This document shows positions 1-64,000 of a stretch of 64,000 bases of DNA, piece after piece. Positions within the stretch are counted from its first letter, which is position 1, and each line of letters begins with the position of its first letter. A program made the translations under genes and the position numbers. The DNA comes from Flavobacteriales bacterium. GTDB taxonomy: Bacteria > Bacteroidota > Bacteroidia > Palsa-965. The stretch lies in contig JBEIPA010000028.1 in NCBI GenBank assembly GCA_040377305.1, positions 1 to 64,000 on the forward strand, given 5' to 3'. The notes under the pieces were generated by a model. It worked only from the letters and a program-made list of their open reading frames with translations. It was not told where the DNA came from and searched no databases.

Positions 1-723
1 ACGGTAGATGTAACGTTGTCCGTTCCGTTTGCTCATGATCAATTCCCCATCCGACATCAGGAAAACATCGGCAGTATTGAAATCCGTCTGTGCTGAAAAT
101 TCACTGAGCACCACCGTTTCTTGCTCGTCGCCGAAAACGAATTGAACAACTTTTTTTACCGTCCGTGTTTTTTTGATAAAAGTTCCATCAGCAGTCCTGA
201 TCATTACAGGCGCCGTGACTCGGAATTTGATATCATCATAGTAATACGGTGCCGGAAAAAATCCCGCGCAATTTTTATCATCAGGGGTATAAAGATGGAT
301 GCCCGCCCCAGCGCGGAATGACGCGTTGCTGTAATATTCCTCCAACGATTTTACCTGTAGCGAGTAGATGTCTATTACATCCATGCCGACATCCGAAATA
401 TTATTGTCGGAAAAGTTTTCCTGGTAAGCAATGATCAGTCCTGTTTGTCCGTCAGGGTAGATGCTGCCGATCGGCCTGTTCTGGAGCCCATGTGTCTTCG
501 GTGTGAGCAACTGAAATTCCTGACCATCGAACCGGCAAAGTCCGTAAGGCGTCCCGATCCAGATAAATCCAAGCTGATCCTGATTAATGCAGGTTACTTT
601 ATTGCCAGGCAGTCCGTCGGTGTATGTGTAAAGCCGTTTCTGAATAATGTAATCCTGGTCTCCTCCAAAAACGAATGATGGAAGGAGCAGAAACAGAATG
701 ATGAAACAGGAAAGTGGTCTCAA
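1..723 (-). CDS. Two-component regulator-propeller (Reg_prop) sensor protein, 5' part; runs off the window edge
   Basis: Manually translated, not in the ORF track. TTG at 723, open to base 1: MRPLSCFIILFLLLPSFVFGG..YTYTDGLPGNKVTCINQDQLGFIWIGTPYGLCRFDG. Signal peptide plus the DGLP.N.V..I.QD..GFIWIGT propeller repeat. Confidence 0.85.
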   Translation of the reverse strand, partial: MRPLSCFIILFLLLPSFVFGGDQDYIIQKRLYTYTDGLPGNKVTCINQDQLGFIWIGTPYGLCRFDGQEFQLLTPKTHGLQNRPIGSIYPDGQTGLIIAYQENFSDNNISDVGMDVIDIYSLQVKSLEEYYSNASFRAGAGIHLYTPDDKNCAGFFPAPYYYDDIKFRVTAPVMIRTADGTFIKKTRTVKKVVQFVFGDEQETVVLSEFSAQTDFNTADVFLMSDGELIMSKRNGQRYIYR

Positions 724-845
724 GCAGCGGAAAATATTGATAAAGATACAGCAGGAGCTTCAATCGGGAAGTTTCAGGGGTGAATGGCGGAAGTTTGTGG
801 TTGGAGCGATTCGGACAATATTTTGACTCCTGTTTTGAAAAAGAA

Positions 846-25837: not shown

Positions 25838-25868
25838 AGCTGCTATTTTATAGATGTTGAATGCTTCT

Positions 25869-36927: not shown

Positions 36928-37105
36928 ATGTCAACTCAAAATGAAAAGGACGACTTAAAAGGACCATCCCCATTAACAACAGAAAAACTAAGAACATATC
37001 CCGGATTTGAAAATCTATCCGATGAAGAAGCGACGGAAGCTATTCGCACAATAAGAACGTGCGCCCGATTCTTCTTTGAATTGTACGTTTCTGATAAGAG
37101 AGAAA

Positions 37106-37125
<20 letters not shown>
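36928..37125 (+). CDS. Small protein overlapping the recombinase start (possible accessory/directionality factor)
   Basis: LT.EKLRTYPGFENLSDEEA..AI..I; overlaps the recombinase ATG. Function is inference only. Confidence 0.7.
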
Positions 37126-38744
<1,619 letters not shown>

Positions 38745-44682: not shown

Positions 44683-45714
44683 TTAAACTTTCACGACTTT
44701 GAACGTGTAGGTGCGGAAGTAAGTCTCAATTCTCAGGAAATAATACCCGCACGCATACGACGTCATGTTAATGGTACGTTGTTGCAAAGGATCTTCTACT
44801 GTGTAAACGATTCTTCCAACTTCGTCGTAGAGTACTGCTGTATATATTTCCGTATTTGCTTCAGGCAGCCAGGAGAGCAGATCAGTAACCGGGTTCGGGA
44901 AACAATCTACTCCGCTTGGAGGTGCAACCGGAAGAGGCTGGATTTGACTATTGCTCGCAGCAATAAAACCACCGGAATCAAAGTGCGCATCGTCGCGATC
45001 ACCGATTAGAAACACGATGTGATATATCTCGCCAGGCACTACATGCACACTGGCATACATGATATTTGTTAATCCATCGTATTCAATGTAGCTGCCAAAA
45101 GGAAACATATTGTTGTAAAACAACGTCGGATTGTTTTGGTCATTCACATTGTTAATGCTTAGCGTTGTATAGTCAGGAAGCCAGGCAAAATTCCAGTGTA
45201 TATAATTTCCTCCATCCGGACTGATTCCGTTGATCTGAATCTCAAATTCGTCGTCGTATGCAGAGTGGACGTATTCCGGATACTCTTCCGATCCGAAAGA
45301 GATAGGAAAGGTGATTGTATTGGAAGTGGAGACGGCATCAAATTCGAACGAACAAATATCATAGGTAGGATGGAAGGCGGGAATGGTTGCCATCGTGTTG
45401 TATGCTGTTGAACTGTTTGCAGAATCGTTTCTGGTAAAGCAGTTGTAAAAGCTTCCGGTCGTGATTGCAATTCCATGAGAAAACGGAAGTTCCGTATTGC
45501 CTTCGAATTCGCCGTATGCCATAGAATCACAGGAGATCGTGACATTCGTAATATCAAGTCCGGGCTGAGTGAGAAGAGAATCAATTCGAAGTGCAGTAAT
45601 CCCGGAACGCGTTACAACCTGCGCACTGATGCACTGCGAAATGCACAAGGCACCACATCCAATAAGGAGGCTGAGAATATTCCGAAGCATCGTTTTAGTT
45701 ACGGTGATGTTCAA
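44683..45714 (-). CDS. Choice-of-anchor L-like domain protein with T9SS CTD
   Basis: GI.I.TG, FEFD, FGSEEYPEYV, IEYDG.T, IGD..D..FDSG, FPNP. The start may be 45690. Confidence 0.8.
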   Translation of the reverse strand: MNITVTKTMLRNILSLLIGCGALCISQCISAQVVTRSGITALRIDSLLTQPGLDITNVTISCDSMAYGEFEGNTELPFSHGIAITTGSFYNCFTRNDSANSSTAYNTMATIPAFHPTYDICSFEFDAVSTSNTITFPISFGSEEYPEYVHSAYDDEFEIQINGISPDGGNYIHWNFAWLPDYTTLSINNVNDQNNPTLFYNNMFPFGSYIEYDGLTNIMYASVHVVPGEIYHIVFLIGDRDDAHFDSGGFIAASNSQIQPLPVAPPSGVDCFPNPVTDLLSWLPEANTEIYTAVLYDEVGRIVYTVEDPLQQRTINMTSYACGYYFLRIETYFRTYTFKVVKV

Positions 45715-48424: not shown

Positions 48425-48571
48425 AAGTTGGTGTTTTGCTAATACAATATAGCCTAAATTATCGAGACATGCAGCCGGCACGTGAGCAACTACGCGCATA
48501 TCGTGATATTATGATCTTAATAAGATGCGTGTAGAGAGATGCGTATTATCTTAGCCTGAGAACAAACCCAA

Positions 48572-50572
48572 ATGCGCAACAGGATTTCATCCTTACAGTT
48601 CAGGTATTTCTTTATTTCGGCGTGCCTGATTGTTTCGTTAGGTAGGCGAGCGGCTGCACAAAACACTCCATTTACAGATTCTATTTTTACTATCATTTAC
48701 GCAATGCCTGATGATAGCGTCAAAGCGCAATACATCAATGATATTTATGAACAGGAATTGTGGGCGTACAATTTACCGGAGGCGTACAATCAATTAAAGC
48801 TGGCTGCGCGAATCAGTGAAGCGTGCGGAGCGGATACACTCCTGTACGACACATATCACAATATGGGTGGTTTTTGTATTCGGGCGAACGCCCACGAGTA
48901 TGCTCTTCAGCACAGGGAAAAGCAAATGGAACTTGCGAAGAGCTGGAATGATAGCACACGAATCGGTTATCTGTGGGGAGCGATGGCTATGTCGTGGGGT
49001 GGACTTGGTGAGCACGAACTTTCGATCGCCTATTACAAAAAAGCAATAGCAGTTATTGAGAAGATCGCCAAGCTGGAAAACATCGGTCGTATGCACACGT
49101 TTCTCGGTTGGGCGTATGATGCAAACGGGCAACTCGATTCGGCAATAAAATACTGTGAGATTGGATTTGAAGAAAGGGAGCGGGGTAAATATGTTCCAGG
49201 AATGTACGCGTCCGGTGGCAGCTTATTAGGTATGCACATGCGTGACTCCAATTACGTGCGTGTACGTGAGATAATTGAGAAACTGGTGTATGCAACAGAT
49301 AGTTCATACACTGGCCCAACGAGAGATGGATTTGTTACCTGGTATGGCGCGATACACGAGAAGCAAGGGAATCTCGATTCAGCGTTGTGGTATTACAAGA
49401 AAGGTCTTGAAGTGCAAACCAAAGGGCACAACATTCCAATGATGAAGGATATATACCTTCAGCTATCCACGGTGCTTTCCAAAATGAACAGGACAGATGA
49501 AGCTTATGATTACCTGTTAAAGCACAATCATCTGAAGGATTCAATCCGGGACTGGGAAACGAAGAACAATCTCGAACGTCAAAGGGAGATTTACGATGTG
49601 GAAAGCAAGAATGCGGAGATAGAAAAATTGATGCAGGAAACGGAGTTGCAGCAGTTGGAAAGTACAGAGAAGGACAAACAACGTACCTGGTTACTCGTTG
49701 TACTCGGTGTAACCACGATTCTTGTTTTTGTTGCATTGCTTGCTTACCGCCAGAAACGAAAGTCAGCAATTCTTCTGAAACAGCAGAATGCAATCATTGC
49801 AGAAAAAAATCACGACATCACCGATAGTATTCAGTATGCAAAGCGTATTCAGCAAGCCATACTTCCTTCCTTGGAGCAGATTAAAGCCGCGTTGCCCGAT
49901 TCGTTTGTGTTCTTCGCTCCGAAAGATATTGTGAGCGGAGATTTTTTCTGGTTCACTGAAACACCCAAAGCATTTTTCATTGCGGTGGTCGACTGCACAG
50001 GACACGGTGTGCCGGGCGCCATGATGAGCATGATCGGTTACAATTATCTGGGGCAGATCGTCAATGAGCAGGACGTAGATTCTCCGGTAGATATTCTGAA
50101 TGAACTTCATCGTAAAGTAATTCTTGCGCTGAACAAAGATTACACCTCGCGTTTGATGAAGGACGGAATGGATGTGGCATTACTGCGCATAGACAAGAAG
50201 ACCAAACAGATTCTTTTCACGGGTGCGGTAAGACCTTTGTACATCATTGCAAACGGTGTGCTCTCTGAAATCAAAGGCGACATTTATTCTATTGGTGGAA
50301 TTAAGGACGTGACCACACAAACATTCACTGTACATGAAGTGAATGCTCCAGTTGGAAGTTGTCTCTATTTATTCTCGGACGGTTACGCAGATCAGTTCGG
50401 TGGTCCGGGCGGAAAGAAATTCAAATATAAAAATCTGCGTGCACTGCTTCTCAAAAACGCTTCATTACCTATGGAAGAACAACGTGCGGAGATCGAGAAG
50501 ACTTTTCACGGTTGGAGAGCAGAGCTGGAGCAGGTGGATGATGTTTGTGTGATGGGGTTGAGGATTGTTTAG
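48572..50572 (+). CDS. TPR-periplasmic, TM, SpoIIE/PP2C phosphatase sensor
   Basis: TPR helices, TM, DSIQYAKRIQ, PKDIVSGDF, DCTGHGVPGA, DGMD, SDGYADQFGG, QVDD. Confidence 0.93.
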   Translation: MRNRISSLQFRYFFISACLIVSLGRRAAAQNTPFTDSIFTIIYAMPDDSVKAQYINDIYEQELWAYNLPEAYNQLKLAARISEACGADTLLYDTYHNMGGFCIRANAHEYALQHREKQMELAKSWNDSTRIGYLWGAMAMSWGGLGEHELSIAYYKKAIAVIEKIAKLENIGRMHTFLGWAYDANGQLDSAIKYCEIGFEERERGKYVPGMYASGGSLLGMHMRDSNYVRVREIIEKLVYATDSSYTGPTRDGFVTWYGAIHEKQGNLDSALWYYKKGLEVQTKGHNIPMMKDIYLQLSTVLSKMNRTDEAYDYLLKHNHLKDSIRDWETKNNLERQREIYDVESKNAEIEKLMQETELQQLESTEKDKQRTWLLVVLGVTTILVFVALLAYRQKRKSAILLKQQNAIIAEKNHDITDSIQYAKRIQQAILPSLEQIKAALPDSFVFFAPKDIVSGDFFWFTETPKAFFIAVVDCTGHGVPGAMMSMIGYNYLGQIVNEQDVDSPVDILNELHRKVILALNKDYTSRLMKDGMDVALLRIDKKTKQILFTGAVRPLYIIANGVLSEIKGDIYSIGGIKDVTTQTFTVHEVNAPVGSCLYLFSDGYADQFGGPGGKKFKYKNLRALLLKNASLPMEEQRAEIEKTFHGWRAELEQVDDVCVMGLRIV

Positions 50573-50901: not shown

Positions 50902-51645
50902 ATGTCTCGACTTCTTTTCATATTGGCTTTTGTGTTCGCAGTATACGGAATTACACGAGCACAAAACTTTAACTACACAGTTTCCACCGATTCGGTTTCG
51001 TGGAATGAACTAAACACGCAGACCATTCTTAATGGTAATAATAGCGCGTGGAATTTCTCATATAAAATTCCAATTGGATTCACCTTTTCGTTTCTGGGAA
51101 GAAGTTTCGATTCATTAACAATTGAAACGAACGGATATCTCGTTTTCGACAATGATCGAAATTATGCCATGACCGCATTTTCAGGTGTGGGAGATCATAT
51201 TGATTCTCTTGGTAATCATGCAATCATTGGTTACGAATTGTCGGGTACGAATGGAAATCACATTCTGAAGATTCAGTATCTGAATTGCAGTCCGTATGCA
51301 ACCGGTAATGAGGTTCAATCGTGGCAGGTATGGCTTAAAGAAAACGGGAACGCGGAGTTTAGAATCGGATGCGGACAATTGAGACATAACAATGTTACGA
51401 CCACTGTGTGGAGCACATTTTCACAGGAGGATTCGTCCTATGCTGAGATTGTGATTGATACAATACAACGATTTCGCCTGGGATTCCTAAACATGAATAT
51501 GAATGACACACTTACGAACGGAATAGTGCTTGAAGGCAATCCGGTTTCGCCACAGTCTGAACCGCTAGTGCCCGGTGAAGCAATTCCTATTCTGACTTGT
51601 GTGCCTGCTCAAGGTTATCGTTATGTTTTTACTCCACAATTCTAA
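50902..51645 (+). CDS. Exported hypothetical protein, first gene of the operon
   Basis: Signal peptide; IPIGFTF.F.G..F.....TNG.L.F; G..GN.ILKIQY.N. Confidence 0.8.
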   Translation: MSRLLFILAFVFAVYGITRAQNFNYTVSTDSVSWNELNTQTILNGNNSAWNFSYKIPIGFTFSFLGRSFDSLTIETNGYLVFDNDRNYAMTAFSGVGDHIDSLGNHAIIGYELSGTNGNHILKIQYLNCSPYATGNEVQSWQVWLKENGNAEFRIGCGQLRHNNVTTTVWSTFSQEDSSYAEIVIDTIQRFRLGFLNMNMNDTLTNGIVLEGNPVSPQSEPLVPGEAIPILTCVPAQGYRYVFTPQF

Positions 51646-51657
51646 ACTACACTGTGC

Positions 51658-54600
51658 ATGATACGGATATTTTTCATTTTAATTATCTTCCTTCTGTTCG
51701 GATCGATTGACGCATTTGCGGCGAAGAGATACTGGGTTGGCCCGGGAACAAAGTGGAGTGTGACTACGCATTGGTCAACGACGAGTGGCGGTGGCGGTGG
51801 CGCATCTGTACCCGGAAGCAGTGATACGGCGTATTTCGACGGGAGCTGGACGGGAGGCTGTGAGATTAACGCTGTGGCAAGCGTGAAGCGTTTCGACGTT
51901 GCGGCGGGTTATAGTGGCACTATTACGCAAACTTCTGCTTTGACTATCGGAACGGGTAATGGGTTTTTTAGTGGAGGGAATTTTGCCGGAGGATCAAGTG
52001 CAGTTACTTGCGATGGTTCACTTACGATTAGTGGAACCGCGTTTACATCAACGAGCAATACTCTTACGTGTGTCGGCAATTTTTCTCTGAGCAGCGGATC
52101 ATTTACGCACAATAGCGGTACGCTATTATTTACAACGAGCAATACAATTTCCGGCACCATCAACCTCAATCATCTTACGTTCACACCTGCGTCTGCAGCC
52201 ACTCATACTATCAGCAACACGCTTACTGTAAACGGAACCTTAACGCTGAGCGGGTCGAATCAACTTACACTTAATACCGGAACTATCGACACGAAGTCGA
52301 CCATTACAATTACGAATTCCGGAACGGGAGGAGGAGGATCAGCAACAATCAGTATGACTGGAACAGCAAGCCCAACGTTGACGGGAAGCGGGACTATCGG
52401 ACAAGGTGCATTGCCAAAAGTAGTAATCAATAAGTCGAGTGGGACGTTGACAATCGCCAGCACAGTCAGTTCCGCAAATGACTGGACATGGACTTCCGGA
52501 ACGTTGACCACAACCAGTAGTACAGTTGCGTTTCTCGGTACCTGTACTATTGCGGGAAGTCACACTTTGAATAATGTTACGTTTCAATCTAACAGTACTA
52601 CTACTTACACGGTCAGCAATACCCTCACGGTGAATGGCACTTTGACTACTGCAGGTAGCGGAACGCTCACTTTTGAAACTGGTACAATTGATGCGAAAGG
52701 CGCGGTGACATTAAGTAATACCGGGCTTGGTGGAGGTGGTACTGCTTTGATAACCATGACGGGAGGCGGTTCGGTAAATCTAACTGGCAACTCAGGTGTT
52801 GGAATGAGCGCACTTCCAAGATTTCAGATCAATCGTGCAGGCACAGGAGGTGCGGTCACAATTGTAGATACAGTGAGTGCCGGAAACGATTGGACTTGGA
52901 CTTCGGGAACGTTGACAACAACGAATAGTCATGTCGCATTTCTTAACACGAGTACAATTACAGGCAGCCAGACATTGAACAACGTTACTTTCAGGAACAG
53001 TACGTTGGCTACGTATGCAATTGCCAACACTTTAACCGTGAACGGAATTTTATCAACGAGAGGGGCTGGTACCTTAACATTCAATACCGGTACGATTGAT
53101 ACAAAGAGTACAATCAAACTTCACAACACGGGATCGGGGGGAGGAGGATCCGCGACGATTACTCTTACAGGTAGCTCCAGCCTTACGATGTATGGTAACA
53201 GTACGATCGGACATAGCGCACTCCCAAAGTTGACAATTAACAAAACGGGAGGTACACTAACGATTGCGAATGTAGTTTCGGCAGCAAATAACTGGACATG
53301 GACCGCTGGTACATTGTCTACTACCGGAAGCACTGTTGCTTTTATAAATAATTGCACAATCGCAGGTTCTCACGGATTAAACAACGTTACGTTTCAGTCA
53401 AACAGTCTTACTCCTATTACATATACGATCAGCAATACCCTCACAGTTAACGGAACTCTGGAAACCGGAGGAAGTGCGACGCTGAAATTTATGACGGGAA
53501 CAATTGATACGAAGAGTACAATTAATCTCAACAATGCCGGAACAAATGGTGGAGGGAATGCAACTATAACTCTGACGGGCACCAATAGCCTGAGCATGAC
53601 AGGAAACTCAACCGTCGGTCAGAGCGCACTGCCAAAAATTACGATTAACAAGGCCAGCGGAACGCTGACCCTGGCAAGTACGATCAGCGTACAGAACGAT
53701 TGGACATGGACGGCGGGATCAATTTCGTATGGATCGAGTACGGTCGCGTTTGTTGATACTTTGACAATTTCAGGTAGTCACGGATTAAATAGTGTGACGT
53801 TTCAGCCCTCAACTGATACTAGTGCAGTATACACATTGGGAACGACAACGACATTGACCGTTAACGGGACATTGACAACAGGTGGAAACGGTACTCTGAA
53901 ATTTAATACATCAGGCAGCGGAAAGATTGATGCGGCTGGCAATATTACCATAAACAATACAGGAGCAAACGGAGGTGGAACTTCCACTATAACAGTCACT
54001 GGTTCAGGTACGGTAAACTTTGATTCCAATGTTAGTTCGAATAAGGGACGGCTTCCAAGCTTGATTGTCAACAAAGCAGGAGGGAGTGTGACACTATTGG
54101 ATACAATCACCGTTGCCGGAAACTGGACGTGCTCGACGGACGCGTATCTCACCGAAGGTAGCAGCACCTTGTATCTGGTCGGAAGCAAAACAATTTCAGG
54201 AACTCACACGCTCAATAATGTATTTCTTGATGGTGGCACATATACGCTTGGGAGCAGCGATACAATGAAAGTCGGCGGCTTGTTGAAATATGTTGGCACA
54301 ACTTCAGTATTAGTAAACACCGGGGTAATCGCTGCACGGGGACATATTACCCTTGCAAATACAGCCAGCAGCGGTGGAGGCACCGGTCAACTCCTTATTG
54401 ATGGAACCGCCGTACAAACATTCACCGGAGTCGCATCTGTTTCTGATCAGTCAATGCTGCCAGGTGTGCGATTCAAGAAGACCGGAGGATCCGTAAGCCT
54501 CGTTCAATATTTTACTGTCACCGGCGATTGGACCTATACATCCGGAAATACTCTGCACGGTACAAGTACAGTAAGTTTTACAAAATCAAAAACCATTACA

Positions 54601-56199
54601 GGCAGTGATACTCTTTACAATGTTTGGTTCAGAGGTAATACCGCAACTTTTACCATTGACGGATCAACTACTCTTACAGTTGCCGGAACACTTACCGTTG
54701 AAGGAGCAAGCGCCTTGACGCTCAATACCGGAACAATCAATGCACGAGGCAACATTACTTATGCAAACACGCACGCTTCTACTGGAGGAACAGCAACATT
54801 GAATATCGGTGGTAGTTCTTCGCAAACGCTCACGGGAAGCGGAACTGTAGGGCAAGGCTCATTGCCTAACGTGGTGATTAATAATTCGGGAACACTTTCA
54901 CTCTCTAGTATAATCACATGTGCAGGCAACTGGACTTATACGGGTGGTACTGTTAGTGCCGGCACGTCTACAGTTGCGTTCACCGGCACGTTCAATCTGG
55001 ATGGACAGGGTTCTGTTAACATGGGATTCTGGAATGTGCAGATCCACAGCGGAACAAGAACACTTACCGGCAATCTCGATGTTAATAACAATCTTGCTGT
55101 AACCGGTGGTGCAACATTCAGTGCATCTTCCTACACAATTTATCTCGCGGGGAACTGGACTAATTCAGGAACATTTACTTCCGGCACTTCGACTTTGGTT
55201 CTTGATGGCGTGAAGTACAATACGATTTCTCGTCCTGGAGCGGTTGAGTCACTGTATAACTTAACTGTTAACCGCGCTTATGATGCTGGTGTGAAGAAAT
55301 CTGTGACATTGGGCTCTCGTGTAGATGTGACCAATTCGCTCACGCTTACGAAGGGACGTATAAAAACCACATCAAGTTTCTATCTCCGTCTTACGGACAA
55401 TGCAATCTGTACTGGGGGAAGTGATACGGCATACGTGGACGGACCTATGCGTAAGTTAGGGAATGATGCATTTACGTTTCCGCTAGGAGATACAATTTTT
55501 GTAGATACAGCTTCTTATCATCCGCTTGGAATTTCCATACCATCCAATGCAAGTGATGAATACATTGCGGAATATAAAGGTGCTGTACAAACGGCAGGAA
55601 GTACGCTGGTCGACACTCTGGAGTCGGTAAGCACCTGTGAGCACTGGTTACTCGATCGAACTCCGGGCTCTTCTAATGTCAAAGCAACACTGGGCTGGAA
55701 TAAAAACTGCCAACCTTCAAATTTTGCGGAGCGTACTATTGGTACGTGGGATGGATCGAAGTGGATTGATCAGGGTATTGCATCTTCAACACTCACATGG
55801 CCTACGGGTACAATTACGAGTGCACTGAACATCACATTCGTTTCGAATGCAGCTGTACTGGCAATGGCTGGAAAGAAACGTCCTTATCATGCTTACGTAG
55901 TATTGAAGCACGAACTCGACGGTGGATTTTATCAGGCGTACAATTCACTCTGGTTTCGTCTTGACCAGGAATACTACAACGCAAGCTCGCAACTCACCTA
56001 TACGATCAGAAGTGTCGCAACCAATAATACGGTAACACTCATCAACACTACGAATAACATAATGCTGCCAGTGTATGGCGATAACCGCTATCGGTTTGAC
56101 TTATACACGAGCTCTGGAGCATTGCCTTCCGGATTCTACATCATGGAAGTGACTAACGAGAAAAACGAAAAACAATTTATCCGATTCAGAAACTATTAA
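51658..56199 (+). CDS. 1513-aa G/T/S-rich repeat (beta-solenoid-like) surface protein with atypical CTD
   Basis: RYWVG..W....WS..SGG.GGASVP N-terminus, seven ~135-aa repeats, YVDGP.RK.G...F.FP.G domain, terminal GFY.MEV.NEK.E..F.RF. Confidence 0.9.
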   Translation: MIRIFFILIIFLLFGSIDAFAAKRYWVGPGTKWSVTTHWSTTSGGGGGASVPGSSDTAYFDGSWTGGCEINAVASVKRFDVAAGYSGTITQTSALTIGTGNGFFSGGNFAGGSSAVTCDGSLTISGTAFTSTSNTLTCVGNFSLSSGSFTHNSGTLLFTTSNTISGTINLNHLTFTPASAATHTISNTLTVNGTLTLSGSNQLTLNTGTIDTKSTITITNSGTGGGGSATISMTGTASPTLTGSGTIGQGALPKVVINKSSGTLTIASTVSSANDWTWTSGTLTTTSSTVAFLGTCTIAGSHTLNNVTFQSNSTTTYTVSNTLTVNGTLTTAGSGTLTFETGTIDAKGAVTLSNTGLGGGGTALITMTGGGSVNLTGNSGVGMSALPRFQINRAGTGGAVTIVDTVSAGNDWTWTSGTLTTTNSHVAFLNTSTITGSQTLNNVTFRNSTLATYAIANTLTVNGILSTRGAGTLTFNTGTIDTKSTIKLHNTGSGGGGSATITLTGSSSLTMYGNSTIGHSALPKLTINKTGGTLTIANVVSAANNWTWTAGTLSTTGSTVAFINNCTIAGSHGLNNVTFQSNSLTPITYTISNTLTVNGTLETGGSATLKFMTGTIDTKSTINLNNAGTNGGGNATITLTGTNSLSMTGNSTVGQSALPKITINKASGTLTLASTISVQNDWTWTAGSISYGSSTVAFVDTLTISGSHGLNSVTFQPSTDTSAVYTLGTTTTLTVNGTLTTGGNGTLKFNTSGSGKIDAAGNITINNTGANGGGTSTITVTGSGTVNFDSNVSSNKGRLPSLIVNKAGGSVTLLDTITVAGNWTCSTDAYLTEGSSTLYLVGSKTISGTHTLNNVFLDGGTYTLGSSDTMKVGGLLKYVGTTSVLVNTGVIAARGHITLANTASSGGGTGQLLIDGTAVQTFTGVASVSDQSMLPGVRFKKTGGSVSLVQYFTVTGDWTYTSGNTLHGTSTVSFTKSKTITGSDTLYNVWFRGNTATFTIDGSTTLTVAGTLTVEGASALTLNTGTINARGNITYANTHASTGGTATLNIGGSSSQTLTGSGTVGQGSLPNVVINNSGTLSLSSIITCAGNWTYTGGTVSAGTSTVAFTGTFNLDGQGSVNMGFWNVQIHSGTRTLTGNLDVNNNLAVTGGATFSASSYTIYLAGNWTNSGTFTSGTSTLVLDGVKYNTISRPGAVESLYNLTVNRAYDAGVKKSVTLGSRVDVTNSLTLTKGRIKTTSSFYLRLTDNAICTGGSDTAYVDGPMRKLGNDAFTFPLGDTIFVDTASYHPLGISIPSNASDEYIAEYKGAVQTAGSTLVDTLESVSTCEHWLLDRTPGSSNVKATLGWNKNCQPSNFAERTIGTWDGSKWIDQGIASSTLTWPTGTITSALNITFVSNAAVLAMAGKKRPYHAYVVLKHELDGGFYQAYNSLWFRLDQEYYNASSQLTYTIRSVATNNTVTLINTTNNIMLPVYGDNRYRFDLYTSSGALPSGFYIMEVTNEKNEKQFIRFRNY

Positions 56200-56201
56200 T
56201 C

Positions 56202-56729
56202 ATGAAAAAGCGACTCATCATTTTGTTCAGCATTCAGGCTGTATTATTTATCGCACTCGGTTGGGTGGTATTGTCAAACAGCAATAGCGAACAACACACG
56301 GCTTATATAGAAGTGGCCAAAGTTTACGATGCATTTAAGATGAAGAAAGAACTTGAAGGCAAGTTTACCAATGTAGAACAGTACCGTAAATCTGTGCTTG
56401 ATAGTCTTGAGCTCGAATTGCAGCTCATGGCAGTAACCTATGAGCAGACAAAATCAGAAGACATAAAAACGAATTATCTCGTGAAGAAGCAGGAATATCT
56501 TGGAAAGAAAAAACAATTCGAGGAAGACAATGCCATGGTTTCTCAGCAATACACGGAGGAAATTTTCCAACAACTGAATCAGTATATCACTGAGTACGGA
56601 AAAGAGCACGGCTATCAATACATTTTTGGAGCAGAAGGAAGTGGTTCGCTGATGTACGCCAATGACTCTGAAAACATCACGGAAGAAATCACCAGTTACG
56701 TCAACGAAAAATATTCGGGAGTAAACTAA
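56202..56729 (+). CDS. OmpH/Skp-family chaperone
   Basis: AYIE..KVY..F, coiled coil, LN.YI.EYG...GY.YIFG....LMYA....IT. Confidence 0.88.
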   Translation: MKKRLIILFSIQAVLFIALGWVVLSNSNSEQHTAYIEVAKVYDAFKMKKELEGKFTNVEQYRKSVLDSLELELQLMAVTYEQTKSEDIKTNYLVKKQEYLGKKKQFEEDNAMVSQQYTEEIFQQLNQYITEYGKEHGYQYIFGAEGSGSLMYANDSENITEEITSYVNEKYSGVN

Positions 56730-56730
56730 T

Positions 56731-57327
56731 ATGAGAACCTGGCTTTTTATGATCGGAATTGTTTTGTTCAGCGGGTGCTTTGAAACACGCAAACCTGCAG
56801 GCGAATTACTGAAGTGGGTCGAAGATCCGGACAACGGATTACGTCGTGAAAAAGCCGTGGGCGATTTTGAAATAATTGCCCAATACAAGCCCTTGAGCTA
56901 CATCATCTGCAATGAATCAAAAAATATAACACTCACTCCGGATGAATACAACACCCGTGAGAAGGAATTATGTGGCATGGAATATTTTCAGGTGCGTTTG
57001 AAATCTCCTTCGCCTGATCCATTGATTTACGGAGGAGGAGATCAAAACGTCTATCACATGCGCAATGACTTTCTCATGTTCGGACAAAAAGATTATGTCT
57101 ACCTCCTGCGCGGAGAAGACACGGTGAGTTGCAATATGTATCACTTCGTGAATTACCAGGGACTCGCTCCGTATGCAGATATCCTTCTCGGATTTCCTGC
57201 CGACAGTACAAAATTGAATACCGACAGGGAATTAGTTTATGATGACCAATTGTTTGGCCTCGGCCCCGTGCATTTTACGTTTACCCGCGATGAAATTGAA
57301 TCTGTACCACAATTAGAACTGAATTAA
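56731..57327 (+). CDS. Hypothetical lipoprotein
   Basis: Lipobox FSGC; W......NGL..K; QYKP; D..FG.G...F.F. Confidence 0.8.
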   Translation: MRTWLFMIGIVLFSGCFETRKPAGELLKWVEDPDNGLRREKAVGDFEIIAQYKPLSYIICNESKNITLTPDEYNTREKELCGMEYFQVRLKSPSPDPLIYGGGDQNVYHMRNDFLMFGQKDYVYLLRGEDTVSCNMYHFVNYQGLAPYADILLGFPADSTKLNTDRELVYDDQLFGLGPVHFTFTRDEIESVPQLELN

Positions 57328-57328
57328 G

Positions 57329-60300
57329 ATGACACCACTGGAAATTGTCCGCAAGAAAAAAATCTTCCGCTACATCTCTGCATTTCTTGCAGTGAATATG
57401 TTGGTAGAGTATGTGCAACCCATGAAAGCATTTGCGCTCACCTCCGGTCCCGGACAGGAAGAGTTTGCAAGCTTCGAACCGGTGAGTACATCAGACATGG
57501 TTGATCTCTACACCGGAGATTTCAACTACAATATTCCGCTTATGTCTGTACCAGGACCGAACGGAGGTTATCCAATAAACATTGCTTATCACTCTGGTGT
57601 AGGCATGGATCAGGAGGCAAGTTGGGTTGGTCTTGGATGGAACATCAGCGTTGGTGCGATCAACAGGCAGATGAGAGGATTGCCGGATGATTTTAATGGG
57701 GATGCGGTAATTAATAAGTATAGCATGAGAGATAATACAACAGTTGGTATAGGTTTCGATGCGACATACGACTATACAGAGTATTTGGGTGTGCCAACAA
57801 ATACTCCGTTTAATCCTATAGGCGGTCCACAGGTTCAGTTTCAACTTTATTACAATACCTATCGTGGAGTAGGCTACCGTATTGGATACAGCGGACTAAG
57901 CTGGCCGATGAGCACTGGGTCTGTTGGCGCCGGACTACACTTTGATTCTCAAGGAGGGATAGGTGTAGAACCGAATTTCAGTCTAGGGTGGTCAGCAAAG
58001 CACAGAAATTTTGGAATGGGTTTCTCCAGTGGAATGAGCATCAATTCGCGAGAAGGTCTGTCCGGATTTTCATTTGCATTGTCTGCACATGGAAGACAGA
58101 GTCGTCCACATTGGCAAAACAGCAATAGAAAGTTCTTGGGATATTCTGCGACTTCCAATCTTTCCTTTGGAATCGACCAGAATGTTCCTACAGCAACAAT
58201 TCCGTACACGAATTCTGCTTATGCATTTGACATTCGCGGAGGTGAAGCTGGAAAATTTGCTTCCCTTCACAACATTATGGGTGCCTTTGAATCGGGGATG
58301 CCTTATCTCTGGTCAGGTTTCTTGAACGTGTCAGGTTTATCAGAACAAGAAGTCACTTCAGGTGCGTATGGTTATTTGTATGACTATAATTCAACTGACG
58401 CTGCCATTCGAGATTTTAATCGTGATCAGTTTACTTACAATAAGAAAATTCCAAACCTTCCTAGCTCTGTGGTTACGCATGATATTTACATGACGAGTGG
58501 TCAGGGAATTGGAGGTTGTTTCAGACCTGTACATCAAAGTGTAAAAATATTCTCCCCTCAACAAAGGGAAAATCCAACGCTAGTTGCAAGACTTAATATT
58601 GAACTTGGTTTGGATAATTATCCCGGTGTGGGCTTGGATGAGTATCATATTGGTTTGGGTGCGAGCGTAGGTGTGGGAGGGAATGTTTCCGGATCATGGG
58701 ATAACATTTACAGCAGTGACGTTCGATTTGCAGACGACTTTAACTTGTATGAAGTTTCGGGCGACCCTGGTTATGAACTCTCACCGTTTAAAATGTTTGG
58801 GGAGAAAACTGCGATGTTAATTGCAGATGAAGATCATTTGGCGGCGTGGGACAATTCAAATGCTGTAAGAGTAGAATTGGAAAAGGAAACATCAGAGGAC
58901 ACTTGGTTGAATGCACATTTTGAAGCAACCACAACCTACTCAGATGGAACTGCAGGCTATACTCCTGTGTCTTTTGTAAGTGATGATTTACAGCTCCATT
59001 CTGCCCAACGCGAGCGAAGAGCTACGGATATTGAATACTATACTGCGGCGCAATGCAATGATTATGGTTTTACACATTATACCGGCTACGACACAGCATT
59101 TGATCTAGGACTTGAAAAATATGTTTTGGAGAATATTGAAAAGGCATATCCAGACTATGGAAGTACACATCATATTTCTGAAATCAGCATATTGAAGCCT
59201 GATGGAATGCGCTACACTTACGGACTCTCGGCGTATAACAGGGAACAATCTGATAATTATTTTTCGTACGACGCTTCTGCAACCGGTTCCACTTTTAATA
59301 CGCCGATAATTGAAGCCGAAATTCCAAATAGTGATGACATGGTTGATCCATCCGGCACTCCGGATAATTTTGTGAGTGAAACTCAATTACCAGCTTATAC
59401 TCATTCATGGTTACTTACATCTGTTGTATCTGCCGATTATCTCGATCTTACCGGAGATGGCCCTTCTGATGATGACTATGGTTATTGGGTCCGCTTCAAC
59501 TATTCAAAAACATCTGAGGATTACACCTGGAGAACACCGTATTATGGTGCAACATTTATTGCGGGTAATGCCAGTGACGTGAATGATGATAAAGGTTCGT
59601 TCAGCTATGGTAAAAAGGAAGTTTACTTCATTCAATCAATTGAAACGAAAACACACATTGCTACTTTTTCTGTAAGTAAACGGGAAGATGCACTAGCGGC
59701 GAATAATAAGTTTGAAGGAGGCCAACCTGGCACACCTACTGATGCACAGCGCATGTTCAAATTGGATCATGTTGATCTTTACACCAAAGCCGAATATTTT
59801 GAAAACATTGAGGACCGCGTAATGCGTCCTGCTCCAACACCAATTCAATCGGCCAACTTCAGATATTCATACGATTTGTGCCCAGGTGCTCTGAATAATA
59901 CAGGAGCGGATATGGATGTATTTGGAAACACCGTGTCAGGCGGAGATCCGAGTAACATCAATTCTGCCGGGGGCAAACTCACATTGGATACCTTGTTCTT
60001 TACTTATCAGACTTCTGAACGAGGAAAGTACAGTCCGTATATCTTCGAATATGATAACAGCAATCCTGATTATGACAAAAAGAATATGGATAGATGGGGA
60101 CATTATAAAGACAATGATGCGTATGAAACAGGCGGCTACTATCCGTATGTAGATTTCCCTTACACAGAACAGGATGCTGCTCCTGATGCAGGCACGTGGT
60201 CACTCTCCCGTATTGAATTACCAACCGGAGCTACCATGGAAATTGAATATGAATCGGATGACTACCAATACGTAGAAGGAAAGAAGGCACAACGCATGTA

Positions 60301-63300
60301 CGATATTGTTGGCACCTGGGGTGACATCTATCCAAGTGAAAATTTCGCGACGAATAGAAATACTTCCCCCAAAACTACAAATCTTGAATACAGTGCAGAA
60401 AGTGATGAGTATAAGCTTTATTTCAAACTCGAAGATACTTATGCGTCCGCCAGCCTACCCAATGAGGAAGACTTCTATGAAAAGTATCTCGACGGCGGTA
60501 GATTAGATACGGTATTTTTCAAAGCATACCTCGACATCAAAGGCTGGAATGGTAATTACTATGATTGGGTTACAGGGTATGCAAGAATTAGCACTGATCA
60601 GGCCGATTGCGGATTAGAATCCAGCAATGGCGGTAGTACTTACGATGTCGGCTATGTAACACTGCTTGGAGAGGATCTGGATCGCTATGCGGCCATCTTA
60701 CCTAAAGTTCATCCGTTCATTCGTGCCGGAATAGAACACCTGCACTACAATCGTCCTGATATTGCGAATACACCTGTTCCGCAGACGGCTGATCCATTTG
60801 ACCAGGTAACAAATTTTATTTCCAGCGTTCCGGGTATGGCCAATGATGTGGTAAGCATGCTTGCCGGATACAATAACTGGGCATACCTGAAAGGATCAAG
60901 TAAAAAAATGCGCCTGAATGGTTGGTCAACGATTCGTCTTCAGGATCCTGACAAAAAATATGGTGGTGGCGACCGAGTGAGCCAGCTGAGTCTCACTGAT
61001 AACTGGGCGAATGATGAAACCGCAACCAATACTTATGGTGAGTTCAGCTACGGGCAGAAGTATTCTTATTTACTCGAGGACGGTACATCAAGCGGGGTTG
61101 CGTATGAACCACAAATCGGCGGAGATGAAAGTGCGCTGAGAAGCCCTCGTCCATATGAACACTCCGTGCCGGTGAAAGGAACTGAACACCTGTATATCGA
61201 AAATCCTATCATGGAAAGTTATTATCCGGGAGCACAGGTAGGCTACAGTCGTGTTACTGTGCAAAGTATTGCTCCTGATCGTGCATTTAGTGAGAGTGCT
61301 GGTACCAACGAATTGAAGTTTACTGCGACTCCGCTTTCTATCTATGAATTTTACACACCGCGAGATTTTCCGGTGTTAGTGGATGAAACACCGATAACAG
61401 CCGATCCTTCTATTATTCGACCAATTATTATTCCAGGCATCTATACCAACTTCAAAAAATATGCGGCCCGATCTCAAGGATACTCCGTTGTTCTGAACGA
61501 CATGGCGGGCAAACTTAAATCTGTTGAAATCAGAACACGGCCTAGTGATACTAACCCAACCGGCAATTTATTGTCCCGCCAGCGCTTCGTCTATAATACC
61601 GAACAACCGTATTCAGAGGATGTTGTCAATAAGCTTTCTTCCATGGTGCAGGTGATGTCCTGCGATGGGGATCAGGTCCAATACCAAACTGCAGTTGTTG
61701 GTCAGTCGCATGATATTTTCGTCGACATGAACGAGAATCGCGAATGGATGACAACAGTGGGACTTGACGTTAATCTTGATTTGCAATTTACATCTACAGG
61801 TATTCCAACGTTCATTTTTATTATGCCGCTGGTTAACGTTGCTCGCAATGATGTGCGTCAGCGGACAGTTGTAGTTAACAAAATCATCCACCGCTCAGGA
61901 ATACTCAAAGAAGTAATCACCACTGATCACGAATCAACTGTGAAGAGTTCTTATATCGCTTTCGACCAGGAAACAGGAGAACCTTTACTCACGCAGATTG
62001 AAAATGAATTCAATGATACACTTTACAACATGACGTATCCTGGGCATTGGTACTATCCTGCAATGCGCGGTGCTTATCAGAACTTCGGAGTGGAATTCAG
62101 TGCTTCAACTGCCGGCGGATCATTCCCGATTCCGGTTGATCCTGACGGGCGAATTGTAGTAGACGCGAGCATTCCGGTTGGAAGAACTGTGAACGATTAC
62201 TTCATGGAAGGCGATCAGGTGTGGGTTGTACCTTTCGGTGATGACGGTGCAATTTATACGGTGATTAAGGTGGGCGATGATGCGGGCGATCAGTACATTG
62301 ATCTGATTGACCAGGCTGGAAATTTCATTGACGATGCACTCTCTGTAGAAAGTATCCGTGTCATCAAATCCGGTTACCAGAACCTTCAGGTACTTGCGGC
62401 CGGTGCGGTCACTGCAAAACACATGTTGGTGTGGAGCTATGATCCGAACAATTCTGATTATGAATACGACACACCTCAGAATTTTAATCTTGGAACGGAT
62501 AGTGCTATCATCAACGCAAGTGCAGTAGAGTATGCCGACATCTGGCAAACTCCTTGTAAAGATTGTGAAGGTGTAACGATGCCGAATGGTACAACGAATC
62601 CGTTCCGTTGGGGAGTACGCGGAAAATGGAGACCGTTACAATCGTATGCATTCGTAACGCAGCGTACACAGAACGATGACATCGCAGAAGATGGAGTATA
62701 TACTTTGTTCGAACAGTTTGACTGGCTGGATCCTTCTTCTTCGAATGCAGCGTGGACCGCAGCAACAACAGTAACGAAATATTCTCCAAACGGATTTGAA
62801 CTGGAGAATCGTGACGCACTCGGAAATTACTCAGCCGCACTGTTCGAGTTCGGTGAATCGGTGGTAACTGCCATTGCGTCCAATGCGCGACACAAAGAAA
62901 TTGCATTCGACAGCTTCGAAGATTACGATTTCATGGCAAGCTGCCAGTTGCAGTATGACCACTGGGGATTTGATCCTTCTGATATTGAACGCAGCGATGA
63001 TCAGTATCACACCGGAACGTTTAGTCTCAAGGTGAGCGAAGCTACCGGCACAGAAGTGATTACACGTACACTGATCAACAAGAACTGTGAAACGTATCGT
63101 GCGGTTGCAAAACGTGTGGGACCGTTGGTAGATGGAGATGCTTCTGTTGAGTATGAAATGGACACGTGCGACTGCGTGGGTAAATTCTCGCCAATCATAG
63201 GAAAACAATATGTGCTCAGTGCATGGGTGAAAGAAACCGGGAATGCAACACCTCCACTGAACTATACCAATGCGAAGATCAAAGTGGAAGTCCTGAATAG

Positions 63301-63670
63301 CCTTGCAGCTGTTATTGAAACAGAAACGTTCTCTCCTTCCGGCCCTATCATTGAAGGATGGCAGCGTGTATTCGGAACATTTGACGTGCCTGTTGGCGCT
63401 TACCAGGTACGCGTGACTTATATCAATAACACGTCAACCGGTGAAGATTGTTTTTACGACGACACGCGTATTCATCCGTTCGATGCTAACATGGTGACGT
63501 ATGTGTATGATCCGTTCTCTTTCCGAAGAGTAGCCGAGCTGGATGCGAACAATTTTGCAACGTTCTATGTCTACGACGAAGAAGGACAGTTAACTGCAAT
63601 CAAGAAAGAAACTTCAGGCGGAATCAAAACACTGCGTGAAGGAAAAACAGTTCTCAAACCAAGTTACTAG
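57329..63670 (+). CDS. 2113-aa TcB/SpvB-like, YD/RHS-shell-like secreted protein
   Basis: VDLYTGDFNYNIPL..VPG..GYPINIAYHSG....EASWVGLGWNI..GAINR.MRGLPDD; SWLLT; GGG.RV; GYS.VTV; C-terminal TYVYDP...D.NN....Y.YD..G.L. Confidence 0.85.
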   Translation: MTPLEIVRKKKIFRYISAFLAVNMLVEYVQPMKAFALTSGPGQEEFASFEPVSTSDMVDLYTGDFNYNIPLMSVPGPNGGYPINIAYHSGVGMDQEASWVGLGWNISVGAINRQMRGLPDDFNGDAVINKYSMRDNTTVGIGFDATYDYTEYLGVPTNTPFNPIGGPQVQFQLYYNTYRGVGYRIGYSGLSWPMSTGSVGAGLHFDSQGGIGVEPNFSLGWSAKHRNFGMGFSSGMSINSREGLSGFSFALSAHGRQSRPHWQNSNRKFLGYSATSNLSFGIDQNVPTATIPYTNSAYAFDIRGGEAGKFASLHNIMGAFESGMPYLWSGFLNVSGLSEQEVTSGAYGYLYDYNSTDAAIRDFNRDQFTYNKKIPNLPSSVVTHDIYMTSGQGIGGCFRPVHQSVKIFSPQQRENPTLVARLNIELGLDNYPGVGLDEYHIGLGASVGVGGNVSGSWDNIYSSDVRFADDFNLYEVSGDPGYELSPFKMFGEKTAMLIADEDHLAAWDNSNAVRVELEKETSEDTWLNAHFEATTTYSDGTAGYTPVSFVSDDLQLHSAQRERRATDIEYYTAAQCNDYGFTHYTGYDTAFDLGLEKYVLENIEKAYPDYGSTHHISEISILKPDGMRYTYGLSAYNREQSDNYFSYDASATGSTFNTPIIEAEIPNSDDMVDPSGTPDNFVSETQLPAYTHSWLLTSVVSADYLDLTGDGPSDDDYGYWVRFNYSKTSEDYTWRTPYYGATFIAGNASDVNDDKGSFSYGKKEVYFIQSIETKTHIATFSVSKREDALAANNKFEGGQPGTPTDAQRMFKLDHVDLYTKAEYFENIEDRVMRPAPTPIQSANFRYSYDLCPGALNNTGADMDVFGNTVSGGDPSNINSAGGKLTLDTLFFTYQTSERGKYSPYIFEYDNSNPDYDKKNMDRWGHYKDNDAYETGGYYPYVDFPYTEQDAAPDAGTWSLSRIELPTGATMEIEYESDDYQYVEGKKAQRMYDIVGTWGDIYPSENFATNRNTSPKTTNLEYSAESDEYKLYFKLEDTYASASLPNEEDFYEKYLDGGRLDTVFFKAYLDIKGWNGNYYDWVTGYARISTDQADCGLESSNGGSTYDVGYVTLLGEDLDRYAAILPKVHPFIRAGIEHLHYNRPDIANTPVPQTADPFDQVTNFISSVPGMANDVVSMLAGYNNWAYLKGSSKKMRLNGWSTIRLQDPDKKYGGGDRVSQLSLTDNWANDETATNTYGEFSYGQKYSYLLEDGTSSGVAYEPQIGGDESALRSPRPYEHSVPVKGTEHLYIENPIMESYYPGAQVGYSRVTVQSIAPDRAFSESAGTNELKFTATPLSIYEFYTPRDFPVLVDETPITADPSIIRPIIIPGIYTNFKKYAARSQGYSVVLNDMAGKLKSVEIRTRPSDTNPTGNLLSRQRFVYNTEQPYSEDVVNKLSSMVQVMSCDGDQVQYQTAVVGQSHDIFVDMNENREWMTTVGLDVNLDLQFTSTGIPTFIFIMPLVNVARNDVRQRTVVVNKIIHRSGILKEVITTDHESTVKSSYIAFDQETGEPLLTQIENEFNDTLYNMTYPGHWYYPAMRGAYQNFGVEFSASTAGGSFPIPVDPDGRIVVDASIPVGRTVNDYFMEGDQVWVVPFGDDGAIYTVIKVGDDAGDQYIDLIDQAGNFIDDALSVESIRVIKSGYQNLQVLAAGAVTAKHMLVWSYDPNNSDYEYDTPQNFNLGTDSAIINASAVEYADIWQTPCKDCEGVTMPNGTTNPFRWGVRGKWRPLQSYAFVTQRTQNDDIAEDGVYTLFEQFDWLDPSSSNAAWTAATTVTKYSPNGFELENRDALGNYSAALFEFGESVVTAIASNARHKEIAFDSFEDYDFMASCQLQYDHWGFDPSDIERSDDQYHTGTFSLKVSEATGTEVITRTLINKNCETYRAVAKRVGPLVDGDASVEYEMDTCDCVGKFSPIIGKQYVLSAWVKETGNATPPLNYTNAKIKVEVLNSLAAVIETETFSPSGPIIEGWQRVFGTFDVPVGAYQVRVTYINNTSTGEDCFYDDTRIHPFDANMVTYVYDPFSFRRVAELDANNFATFYVYDEEGQLTAIKKETSGGIKTLREGKTVLKPSY

Positions 63671-63677
63671 TTAGATT

Positions 63678-64000
63678 ATGAAAAAATTACTGCTGATGCT
63701 CACCCTGTGCGGTGCAGGTTTAATCCTGCACGCACAGACGCCCGGAGAATTGCTGAAGGAAACCACCCTGGCTTATCTCGAGGCAAAAAATCTTTCGATG
63801 GATGTAGTTGTACATACGTTCACTTCTGCATCCGATCCTGGAACTCTTCTTGGAAACGGAATGATCCGGAAATCAGAAGAGAATTACTATTCCAAATTCC
63901 TCACCGATGAACTGATCGTAAATGGCACCTGTACTGTGGTTCTTGATCACCAGGAAAAAACAGTGACCTGGTACGATGCTGAAAAAGAAAAGAAGAAGAA
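63678..64000 (+). CDS. LolA-like exported protein, partial
   Basis: Manual translation, open to the window end: MKKLLLMLTLCGAGLILHAQTPGELLKETTLAYLEAKNLSMDVVV...GMIRKSEENYYSKF..ELIVNG..TVVLDHQEKTVT. LolA-type helix-then-strand pattern. Confidence 0.65.
   Translation, partial: MKKLLLMLTLCGAGLILHAQTPGELLKETTLAYLEAKNLSMDVVVHTFTSASDPGTLLGNGMIRKSEENYYSKFLTDELIVNGTCTVVLDHQEKTVTWYDAEKEKKK

Follow-up and report, generated by a model that had tools for sequence, protein, structure and literature searches.

RHS toxins need a vehicle, and the known ones are type VI secretion system (T6SS) spikes and Tc A-channels. What, then, would mount or export such a toxin at a locus where a protein resembling half of a Tc shell is encoded next to Skp, a lipoprotein and a LolA-like protein? 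The question is raised by the end of a 64,000-nt stretch of a Flavobacteriales bacterium (GenBank assembly GCA_040377305.1, contig JBEIPA010000028.1, positions 1 to 64,000 of the forward strand), referred to below as the window; it equals positions 1-64000 of contig C47 in the organism's own genome, and C47 ends at 64984, 984 nt past the window. Six open reading frames (ORFs), g1 to g6, follow one another there on the + strand with intergenic gaps of 12, 2, 1, 1 and 7 nt. The original prediction, made from the sequence alone, had described the same six co-oriented genes and the same gaps, and the ORF coordinates are identical; it had taken g5 for the first half of a toxin shell whose partner, bearing an RHS core, lies downstream. 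Our analysis makes it probable that the locus is a Bacteroidota-wide polymorphic RHS toxin operon, in which g5 and the downstream gene g7 likely enclose a variable toxin tip, and Skp, the lipoprotein and LolA3 likely aid outer-membrane assembly.

The anchor gene of the system, g5 (57329-63670, +), encodes a TcB-like shell protein of 2113 amino acids (aa). It begins with a signal-like stretch of 36 aa ending in AFA/LTSGP, in which the A-L-T-x-G-P positions are invariant among 51 aligned sequences, and it ends with YD-like strands (YVYDPFS...YVYDEEGQL; aa 2054-2113, 63488-63667, +) and has neither RHS core nor toxin tip: the motif PxxxxDPxG is absent from the sequence, and the Rhs core hidden Markov model (HMM) gives no match. 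The signal-like N-terminus, the YD-like strands and the lack of an RHS core motif and of a toxin tip had been noticed in the original prediction and were seen again. AlphaFold2 models of g5 were built from 51-row alignments, with pLDDT 73.3 and pTM 0.69 for aa 1-1150 and pLDDT 82.0 and pTM 0.67 for aa 1001-2113. The search of the N-terminal model against structure representatives (VIA) gave two groups of matches. The group spanning residues ~57-977 comprises the SpvB N-domain 6p0x_B (VIA value 13.7; 237 aa, root-mean-square deviation (rmsd) 3.7 Å), Tse15 (13.5; 227 aa), TcdB2-TccC3 6sue_F (13.4; 284 aa, chain 29..717), Tse5 (13.2; 234 aa), RhsA (11.1; 220 aa), YenB 5kis_A (9.3; 304 aa, chain 29..727) and teneurins (8.3-9.5; 196-199 aa). 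The layout is collinear, with g5 aa 57-978 lying on YenB 29-727 and g5 aa 1211-2113 on YenB 749-1269. The beta-shell expected of g5 is thus borne out in the models, which hold TcB/RHS-type segments collinear with YenB and TcdB2 and combine an SpvB-type N-domain with an RHS shell fold in the order of a solved TcB. For the C-terminal model, Foldseek gives probabilities of 0.99-1.0 to Tc BC entries; the fold of g5 also resembles the mosquito protein SGS1.

We therefore predict for g5 a TcB-like fold, collinear with TcB and carrying two insertions, a beta-barrel and a carbohydrate-binding module (CBM). Along the + strand, a highly conserved SpvB-like N-terminal segment (aa 57-128, 57497-57712; YNIPL...GYP...SWVGLGWN...GLPDDF) is followed by the predicted outer-membrane-type barrel within the SpvB-like domain (aa ~129-458, 57713-58702), by RHS/TcB-type beta-shell segments with further inserts (aa ~600-1834, 59126-62830), and by a CBM-type jelly-roll insert (aa ~1835-2053, 62831-63487) just before the terminal strands. 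VIA-align assigns the Foldseek matches of g5 to iota/CDTb toxins mainly to the CBM-like domain. The first of these segments, aa 57-128, has a median identity of 79% over 50 homologues, against 30% for the barrel and 46% for the shell, which suggests, at the level of sequence, a contact with a conserved partner. Among the inserts of the shell region are a stretch of helix at aa ~1129-1187 and, at aa 1459-1523, a long hairpin; the latter (window positions ~61703-61897) is modelled as a beta-hairpin with two strands of ~30 residues each.

The anticipated RHS-core partner is found in relatives of the window. For synteny counts, 71 loci were kept from named records and their ORFs were searched with HMMs built from genus-level copies; a locus was counted as informative for a gene if it had enough flank at the gene's expected position. 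On this basis g7 is present downstream of g5 in 50 of 53 loci. Its full-length homologues are 2402-2729 aa long; the core family Rhs_assc_core TIGR03696 is found in all five of them (35.5-59.5 bits, cut-off 32.5) and DUF6443 matches four of the five at E < 0.001. The g7 homologues have a signal peptide, DUF6443, many conserved cysteines, which fit an oxidising compartment, RHS repeats, and a core with a PxxxxDxxGL-type motif. The tip is 220-300 aa long in copies where the motif was located, and the alignment consensus vanishes beyond the core motif, so that the tips are non-conserved. A profile of 16 g7 sequences matches RhsA 7q97 (5e-16) and YenC2 (6e-14) in PDB, and also RHS2, Tse5 and SGS4; it touches the bacterial teneurin-like proteins 9pt5 (9.8e-5) and 9ifo in the core region only, and no Pfam match to NHL was obtained on g5 or g7 homologues. 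Directly downstream of the tips lie small ORFs of 138-295 aa, one with MORN_2 repeats, which we take to be a mark of the YwqK immunity type, and one with TPR repeats; of seven such ORFs examined, five carry a signal peptide or a lipobox and the remaining two lack both. By its sequence, g7 has the layout of an RHS/YD polymorphic toxin of the TcC-like kind, with a core, a variable tip and a candidate immunity gene.

The organism's own g7 starts 2 nt after g6, outside the window (contig positions 64376-64984, +), and runs for 203 codons to the contig end; this N-terminus is 42-45% identical to those of relatives. The own genome has only two RHS cores, at the ends of contigs C3 (3742 nt; 28 bits, under the cut-off) and C1 (53.4 bits, over it), and each is followed by a tip and then by an ORF with a signal peptide. 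These pieces look like the familiar arrangement of main rhs gene plus orphan tip module, split by assembly. Some observations concern the surroundings of RHS genes. On C3 (locus L105), a gene for an IS200-like Y1 transposase (247-846, -; PF01797, 23.8 bits, cut-off 23) separates the module of RHS tip and small gene from another RHS fragment. On C1 (locus L106), the contig-end pair of RHS tip and small gene is approached in convergent orientation by a gene for type II secretion system protein F (6482-7669, +; PF00482, E 2.2e-48) and by ORFs of pseudopilin-like appearance, as judged by eye. In one Flavobacteriales locus (L068), a second g7-like RHS gene (3-6368) lies upstream of Skp in addition to the usual downstream one (17540-26794).

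The predicted barrel of g5 does not appear in the original prediction, and it likely changes the mechanism to be considered. The SpvB-like domain is broken by an insert of ~330 aa, modelled as an outer-membrane-type barrel and present in all 50 aligned g5 homologues. In the second group of VIA matches, formed by the mid-ranked rows, 36 of 37 are membrane barrels aligned to g5 aa 127-458. Five consecutive strands at aa 136-239 have one face that consists of LIVFWYAM residues to 71-89% and another to 2-25% (averaged over 51 sequences); the barrel region contains 13.9% glycine and few charged residues, and G455 and W457, situated past the last modelled strand, are nearly invariant. The dyad hydrophobicity, the glycine content and the G455/W457 pair agree with the membrane barrel of the model. 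Such a barrel would explain the extra Skp copy of the operon. Since it is inserted into one folded SpvB-like domain, both of its flanks should be on the same side of the membrane; an even-stranded barrel likewise has both ends on one side, so that the cocoon would lie either below the outer membrane or wholly outside it.

Among the helper genes, g3 (56202-56729, +; 175 aa) encodes a Skp/OmpH protein (PF03938, E 1.5e-15, 58 bits, cut-off 32.4). The own genome has eight OmpH matches at five loci; two of them, in tandem on contig C9, we read as the housekeeping copies, so that g3 is an additional copy dedicated to the operon. The product of g4 (56731-57327, +; 198 aa) is a lipoprotein, with the lipobox LFSGC read in the sequence; Pfam, NCBIfam and PDB sequence searches gave no match for it, and its fold and family were not recognised. 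In the Atlas its closest clusters consist of Bacteroidota hypotheticals; one bears the automatic name 'outer membrane lipoprotein-sorting protein family', which is a lead only. A role of g4 as a LolB-like partner of LolA3 was considered and rejected, as hhalign found no profile relation between g4 and g6 (probability 1.3%). The last gene, g6 (63678-64373 of the contig, +, cut by the window at 64000; 231 aa), belongs to the LolA3 family, with 88 bits to NF053579 against a curated cut-off of 83 over profile positions 1-232; six of seven g6 copies scanned pass this cut-off. Thus the assignments of g3 as Skp, g4 as a lipoprotein and g6 as LolA-like, all made in the original prediction, hold. PDB profile searches with g4 and g6 produced nothing meaningful.

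The gene g6 is the only LolA3 match in its own genome. Of 301 Bacteroidota genomes drawn, 76 have a match at E <= 1e-5, and only five of these, own genome included, exceed the cut-off. Among 30 loci fetched, all five above-cut-off genes lie between g5 and g7 homologues. Four of the 25 sub-cut-off matches are beside g5, three of these also beside g7; the other 21 are beside neither and mostly cover the first ~170 profile positions, like housekeeping LolA. The LolA3 family thereby gains a genomic context, and its link to an RHS operon is new here. The g6 protein is like LolA3 of Flavobacterium johnsoniae and Porphyromonas gingivalis in that it passes the NCBIfam LolA3 cut-off. According to the excerpted text of PMC11885536, deletion of F. 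johnsoniae lolA3 (Fjoh_0605) left gliding and type IX secretion system (T9SS)-dependent amylase secretion unaffected, and P. gingivalis LolA3 (PGN0947) was crystallised, binds LolB weakly and was ascribed a 'separate function' in the excerpts of PMC13103446. Rhs is absent from the texts of both papers, and toxin and Skp are also absent from that of PMC11885536; in our literature search, Fjoh_0601-0606 were found only in the LolA paper.

The joint conservation of the gene set, the third element of the original prediction, is upheld by the synteny counts across the Bacteroidota. The order g1-g2-(g3)-g4-g5-g6-g7 is kept in nine loci of the same genus and class, and the order g3-g4-g5-g6-g7 is held in Flavobacteriales, Cytophagales, Chitinophagales, Sphingobacteriales, Saprospiraceae and Bacteroidales. 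Besides g7, 62 of 66 informative loci have g4, 44 of 65 have g3 and 49 of 56 have g6. A g5 match occurs in 22 of 41 genomes, a tally that includes the own genome and the unpublished genome G012, whose sequence entered no further analysis. The g5 homologues number 495 at E <= 1e-5, every named one being a 'hypothetical protein', and among the 120 matches listed the Pfam field is blank except for CBM_4_9 on five. In species-representative genomes, relatives of g5 occupy at least 649 loci among 682 candidate stretches, and g5 aa 1-700 match 41 of 401 evenly drawn Bacteroidota genomes at E <= 1e-10, some of them only in the region of the SpvB-like motif. Cultured carriers, judged by record titles, are Fulvivirga sediminis, Fulvivirga sp. 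M361, Chryseolinea lacunae, Rapidithrix thailandica and Chitinophaga sp. S165. The view that the genes are chance neighbours engaged in general envelope biogenesis was dropped on the strength of the synteny counts and of the housekeeping OmpH copies elsewhere in the genome.

Some variation in the form of g5 was also observed. Two ORFs stand in place of a single g5 in many loci of the Cytophagales and Chitinophagales, the first of 1600-1750 aa and the second of 780-1240 aa (L060, L061, L065, L066, L069, L080, L088, L090, L095 and L096); the first ORF includes, besides the SpvB-like part and the barrel, most of the shell, and the split point may be a natural domain boundary. In L094, a complete Sphingobacteriales chromosome assembled from a metagenome, both g5 and g7 are fragmented into five or six ORFs apiece, which reflects either a decayed locus or frameshift errors of the assembly.

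The two leading genes are less constant. The first, g1 (50902-51645, +), encodes 247 aa with a signal peptide and belongs to no known family; Pfam and NCBIfam scans gave no match, and in HMM searches it was found in seven genus-level loci against four of 49 informative distant loci, which makes it peripheral to the system. The second, g2 (51658-56199, +), encodes 1513 aa rich in Thr, Gly and Asn with repeat units of ~135 aa and has no Pfam or NCBIfam family. With the HMM from genus-level copies it was detected in 17 of 49 informative loci. The N-terminal repeat part varies in length, ORFs at this position ranging from 154 to 1572 aa, and in a jackhmmer search of the ORFs immediately preceding g3/g4, 30 of 46 had just the final ~110 aa of g2 in common, the sole part of g2 conserved across the phylum. 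This C-terminal domain (CTD; aa ~1400-1513, 55855-56196, +) has Atlas leads to FlgD_ig, Por_Secre_tail and CHU_C at 0.82-0.87, and Por_Secre_tail PF18962 is sub-threshold on four of 30 copies, that is, 29 homologues and the window's own (best E 0.0031). The g2 of the window itself has no PF18962, TIGR04183 or PF13585 sorting domain, even at E <= 1, and so cannot be counted as a T9SS cargo. From its sequence, the CTD is a candidate for a divergent T9SS-type sorting or docking domain, and g2-type proteins may, as a lead only, be surface partners of the system. In the original prediction the repeat protein was proposed to display the shell, an idea that stays speculative.

Farther upstream, four genes with T9SS C-terminal sorting domains encode an M43 peptidase (39040-41151), a CARDB protein (42433-44673), a protein assigned by its sorting domain (44683-45714, -) and an HYR-domain protein (46592-48499, -); T9SS cargo thus adjoins the operon. 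A mobile island may have its border ~12 kb upstream of the operon, where a gene of MerR-like type (36039-36851) is followed by one for a large serine recombinase with Resolvase and Recombinase domains (37076-38713). Directly upstream of g1, across a gap of 329 nt, lies a gene for a TPR protein with a PP2C (SpoIIE) phosphatase domain (48572-50572); it is SiaA-like, with 186.6 bits, far under the equivalog cut-off of 700.

Several results weigh against the interpretation of g5 and g7 as the two parts of an RHS toxin shell. At the sequence level, g5 has no significant Pfam or NCBIfam match, its similarity to SpvB PF03534 is below threshold (E 0.068, 12.8 bits, cut-off 22), this family touches two of nine g5 homologues (best E 0.0039), and comparison with PDB by sequence, with the single protein and with a profile of nine sequences, gave no matches. 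The hhalign comparison of g5 with the RHS repeats of g7 aligned the YD strands at E 0.032 and a probability of 1.6%, which is not significant. In Foldseek, the C-terminal model has TM-scores of 0.06-0.16 to RHS/Tc shells with rmsd above 25 Å, so that a closed g5 shell is not demonstrated, and the sole match of the N-terminal model at E <= 0.001 is a secretin with TM 0.04. No TcB-type beta-propeller was seen among the fold matches or in Pfam, large parts of the models being barely tested. The organism's own g7 is incomplete, ~1450-1600 middle residues being absent from the assembly, and that C47 is joined to C3 or C1 in the genome is something we infer across this gap. No toxin tip has a Pfam family over threshold, the match of the C1 tip to Abhydrolase_6 (E 0.003) being sub-threshold. 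Skp is lacking in 21 of 65 loci and LolA3 in seven of 56. Finally, the TcA families PF03538 and PF18276 have no match in the own genome, and none in the control genomes either, so that this search had no positive control. The reading of g5 as half a shell is accordingly sustained by the shell segments, the downstream RHS partner and the conserved gene set, and not by sequence families, since g5 stays under all Tc/RHS thresholds. As to the original statement that no T6SS or TcA genes are visible in the window, the T6SS sheath VipB PF05943 was not found in the whole genome either, and for TcA the limit of its search applies.

If g5 and g7 do build an RHS toxin shell, the operon could work as follows. 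Sec would export both proteins unfolded; Skp would hold the barrel segment of g5 until its insertion into the outer membrane, and LolA3 would carry the g4 lipoprotein, or shield another hydrophobic part, toward that membrane. The two proteins would then close into a cocoon in the fashion of TcB and TcC, with the RHS core cleaving the tip off within. The barrel of g5 might take over, as an anchor, an exit or both, from the TcA channel or T6SS spike that the system seems to lack. The toxin would be aimed at competing bacteria, the small downstream genes serving as immunity genes, and the CBM could bind glycans of the target or the producer's own cell wall. In its strongest form, which we put forward tentatively and hold to be less probable than the operon assignment itself, g5 would be an outer-membrane-integrated TcB that, together with g7, g4, Skp and LolA3, makes up a self-contained and so far unrecognised pathway of RHS-toxin secretion and delivery in the Bacteroidota; LolA3, to date an orphan paralogue lacking a phenotype, would be its dedicated assembly factor.

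The same two-part cocoon can be imagined with g5 outside the membrane, an option that we regard as rather unlikely. The 'barrel' would then be soluble or internal to the shell, folding would take place in the periplasm, and exit would proceed by T9SS, lysis or vesicles; Skp and LolA3 would merely be holdases for very long chains, and the CTD-like end of g2 would be the T9SS link. The Atlas leads (0.82-0.87) and the sub-threshold Por_Secre_tail matches (4/30) of the g2 CTD point in this direction, as do the four T9SS cargo genes within 12 kb upstream, the conserved cysteines of g7, which suggest periplasmic folding, and the T9SS cargo gene located upstream of the largest Rhs gene of P. gingivalis in the excerpts of PMC6775972. 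However, a T9SS CTD is present neither on g5, which ends in YD strands, nor on g7, which ends in the toxin tip; five consecutive strands with a face that is 71-89% hydrophobic are hard to square with a soluble domain, and membrane barrels make up 36 of the 37 mid-ranked fold matches.

Other explanations concern the purpose of the shell rather than its place. The operon might encode a Tc-like BC toxin against eukaryotes such as protists, nematodes or insects, with the CBM binding host glycans and the small genes being chaperones or unrelated. This is quite improbable in our view: the fold likeness to TcB and mosquito SGS1, the CBM insert in g5 and the free-living environmental Bacteroidota that carry the operon (by record titles) would suit it, but TcA was not found (in searches that had no positive control), and the layout is that of polymorphic toxins, with a variable tip next to a small gene and, in the same genome, another tip module accompanied by a small gene of its own. 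The MORN_2 repeats of one downstream gene, and the signal peptides of several, like those of periplasmic immunity proteins, also speak against it. Still less credence is given to a non-toxic teneurin-like structure for adhesion or kin recognition, in which shell and CBM would bind cells or substrate and the tip would be vestigial. The RHS core and cleavage motif are retained in all five full-length g7 homologues, and the tips have diversified and are accompanied by small genes, which speaks against a vestige. The g7 profile does touch the bacterial teneurin-like protein 9pt5 (9.8e-5), and proteins of this kind are tied to social behaviour in the excerpted text of PMC13018210, but according to the same excerpts they themselves carry toxins and immunity genes.

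The closest relatives of the proposed toxin operon among known systems are the Tc BC subcomplexes, such as TcdB2-TccC3 of Photorhabdus and YenB-YenC2/RHS2 of Yersinia entomophaga. In contrast to these, both g5 and g7 have Sec signal peptides, no TcA was found and no beta-propeller gate was detected, g5 has a CBM insert besides its predicted barrel of membrane type, and g7 is ~2.5 times as long as the TcC chains matched by its profile (965-970 aa), with DUF6443 and a cysteine-rich region. The genes for Skp, the lipoprotein and LolA3 are interleaved here and immunity-like genes follow, and the sequence similarity of g5 to TcB is under every threshold. The class of RHS polymorphic toxins termed the 'TcdB/TcaC export pathway' is defined, in the excerpts of Zhang et al. 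(2012, PMC3482391), by a signal peptide, SpvB and an integrin-like beta-propeller, with bacteroidetes listed among the carriers. Our system is like this class in tying a signal peptide and an SpvB-like domain to an RHS toxin in the Bacteroidota; it differs in that no integrin-like propeller was detected in g5 and in the predicted barrel insert, which the excerpts do not mention. The words Skp, OmpH and LolA do not occur in the text of PMC3482391. The kind of toxin is thus already known through the TcdB/TcaC export class, and the differences are the predicted barrel with no propeller detected, the interleaved helpers, the very large g7, and the absence of a T6SS sheath gene and, in searches lacking a positive control, of TcA.

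Unlike the T6SS-linked Rhs effectors RhsA, Tse5, Tse15 and RhsP, the operon comes without PAAR and VgrG, no sheath gene was found in the genome, and two Sec-exported proteins would each supply a part of the shell. Bacterial teneurin-like proteins share with it a YD shell around a polymorphic toxin, a downstream immunity gene, and Sec or lipoprotein signals in Gram-negatives; by the excerpted text of PMC13018210 they are single chains of FN-plug, NHL and YD-shell reported from six phyla, Bacteroidota not among them. Skp and LolA do not occur in that text, and the likeness of g7 to a teneurin-like protein is confined to its core region. With respect to type V secretion (autotransporters, inverse autotransporters and CdiB/CdiA), g5 is without a Pfam match and hence has no autotransporter, POTRA or two-partner secretion domain, and its barrel is an insert in a folded SpvB-like domain, not a terminal domain. 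Within the phylum, the excerpts of PMC6775972 describe the P. gingivalis locus PGN_1816-1825, where Rhs genes have a PxxxxDPxGE core and variable tips, a T9SS-cargo gene lies directly upstream, and expression is strongly induced in surface translocation; the authors state there that the organisation and role of Rhs in Bacteroidetes are unstudied. Our operon is like this locus in its Bacteroidota Rhs core with variable tips, but TcB-like, Skp and LolA3 partners are not described in those excerpts.

Our literature search, which covered sources other than subscription journals and supplements, found no paper describing the operon and none on 'DUF6443'. Five gene families of the system are without a Pfam model, namely g1, the g2 CTD, g4, g5 and the N-terminal part of g7. 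LolA3, for which two recent studies report no function, gains a role that can be tested. A large family of Bacteroidota RHS loci, at least 649 in number and met in about one in ten sampled genomes, emerges in which neither of the known vehicles was found; if the barrel of g5 is real, it would represent a new way to mount or export an RHS cocoon.

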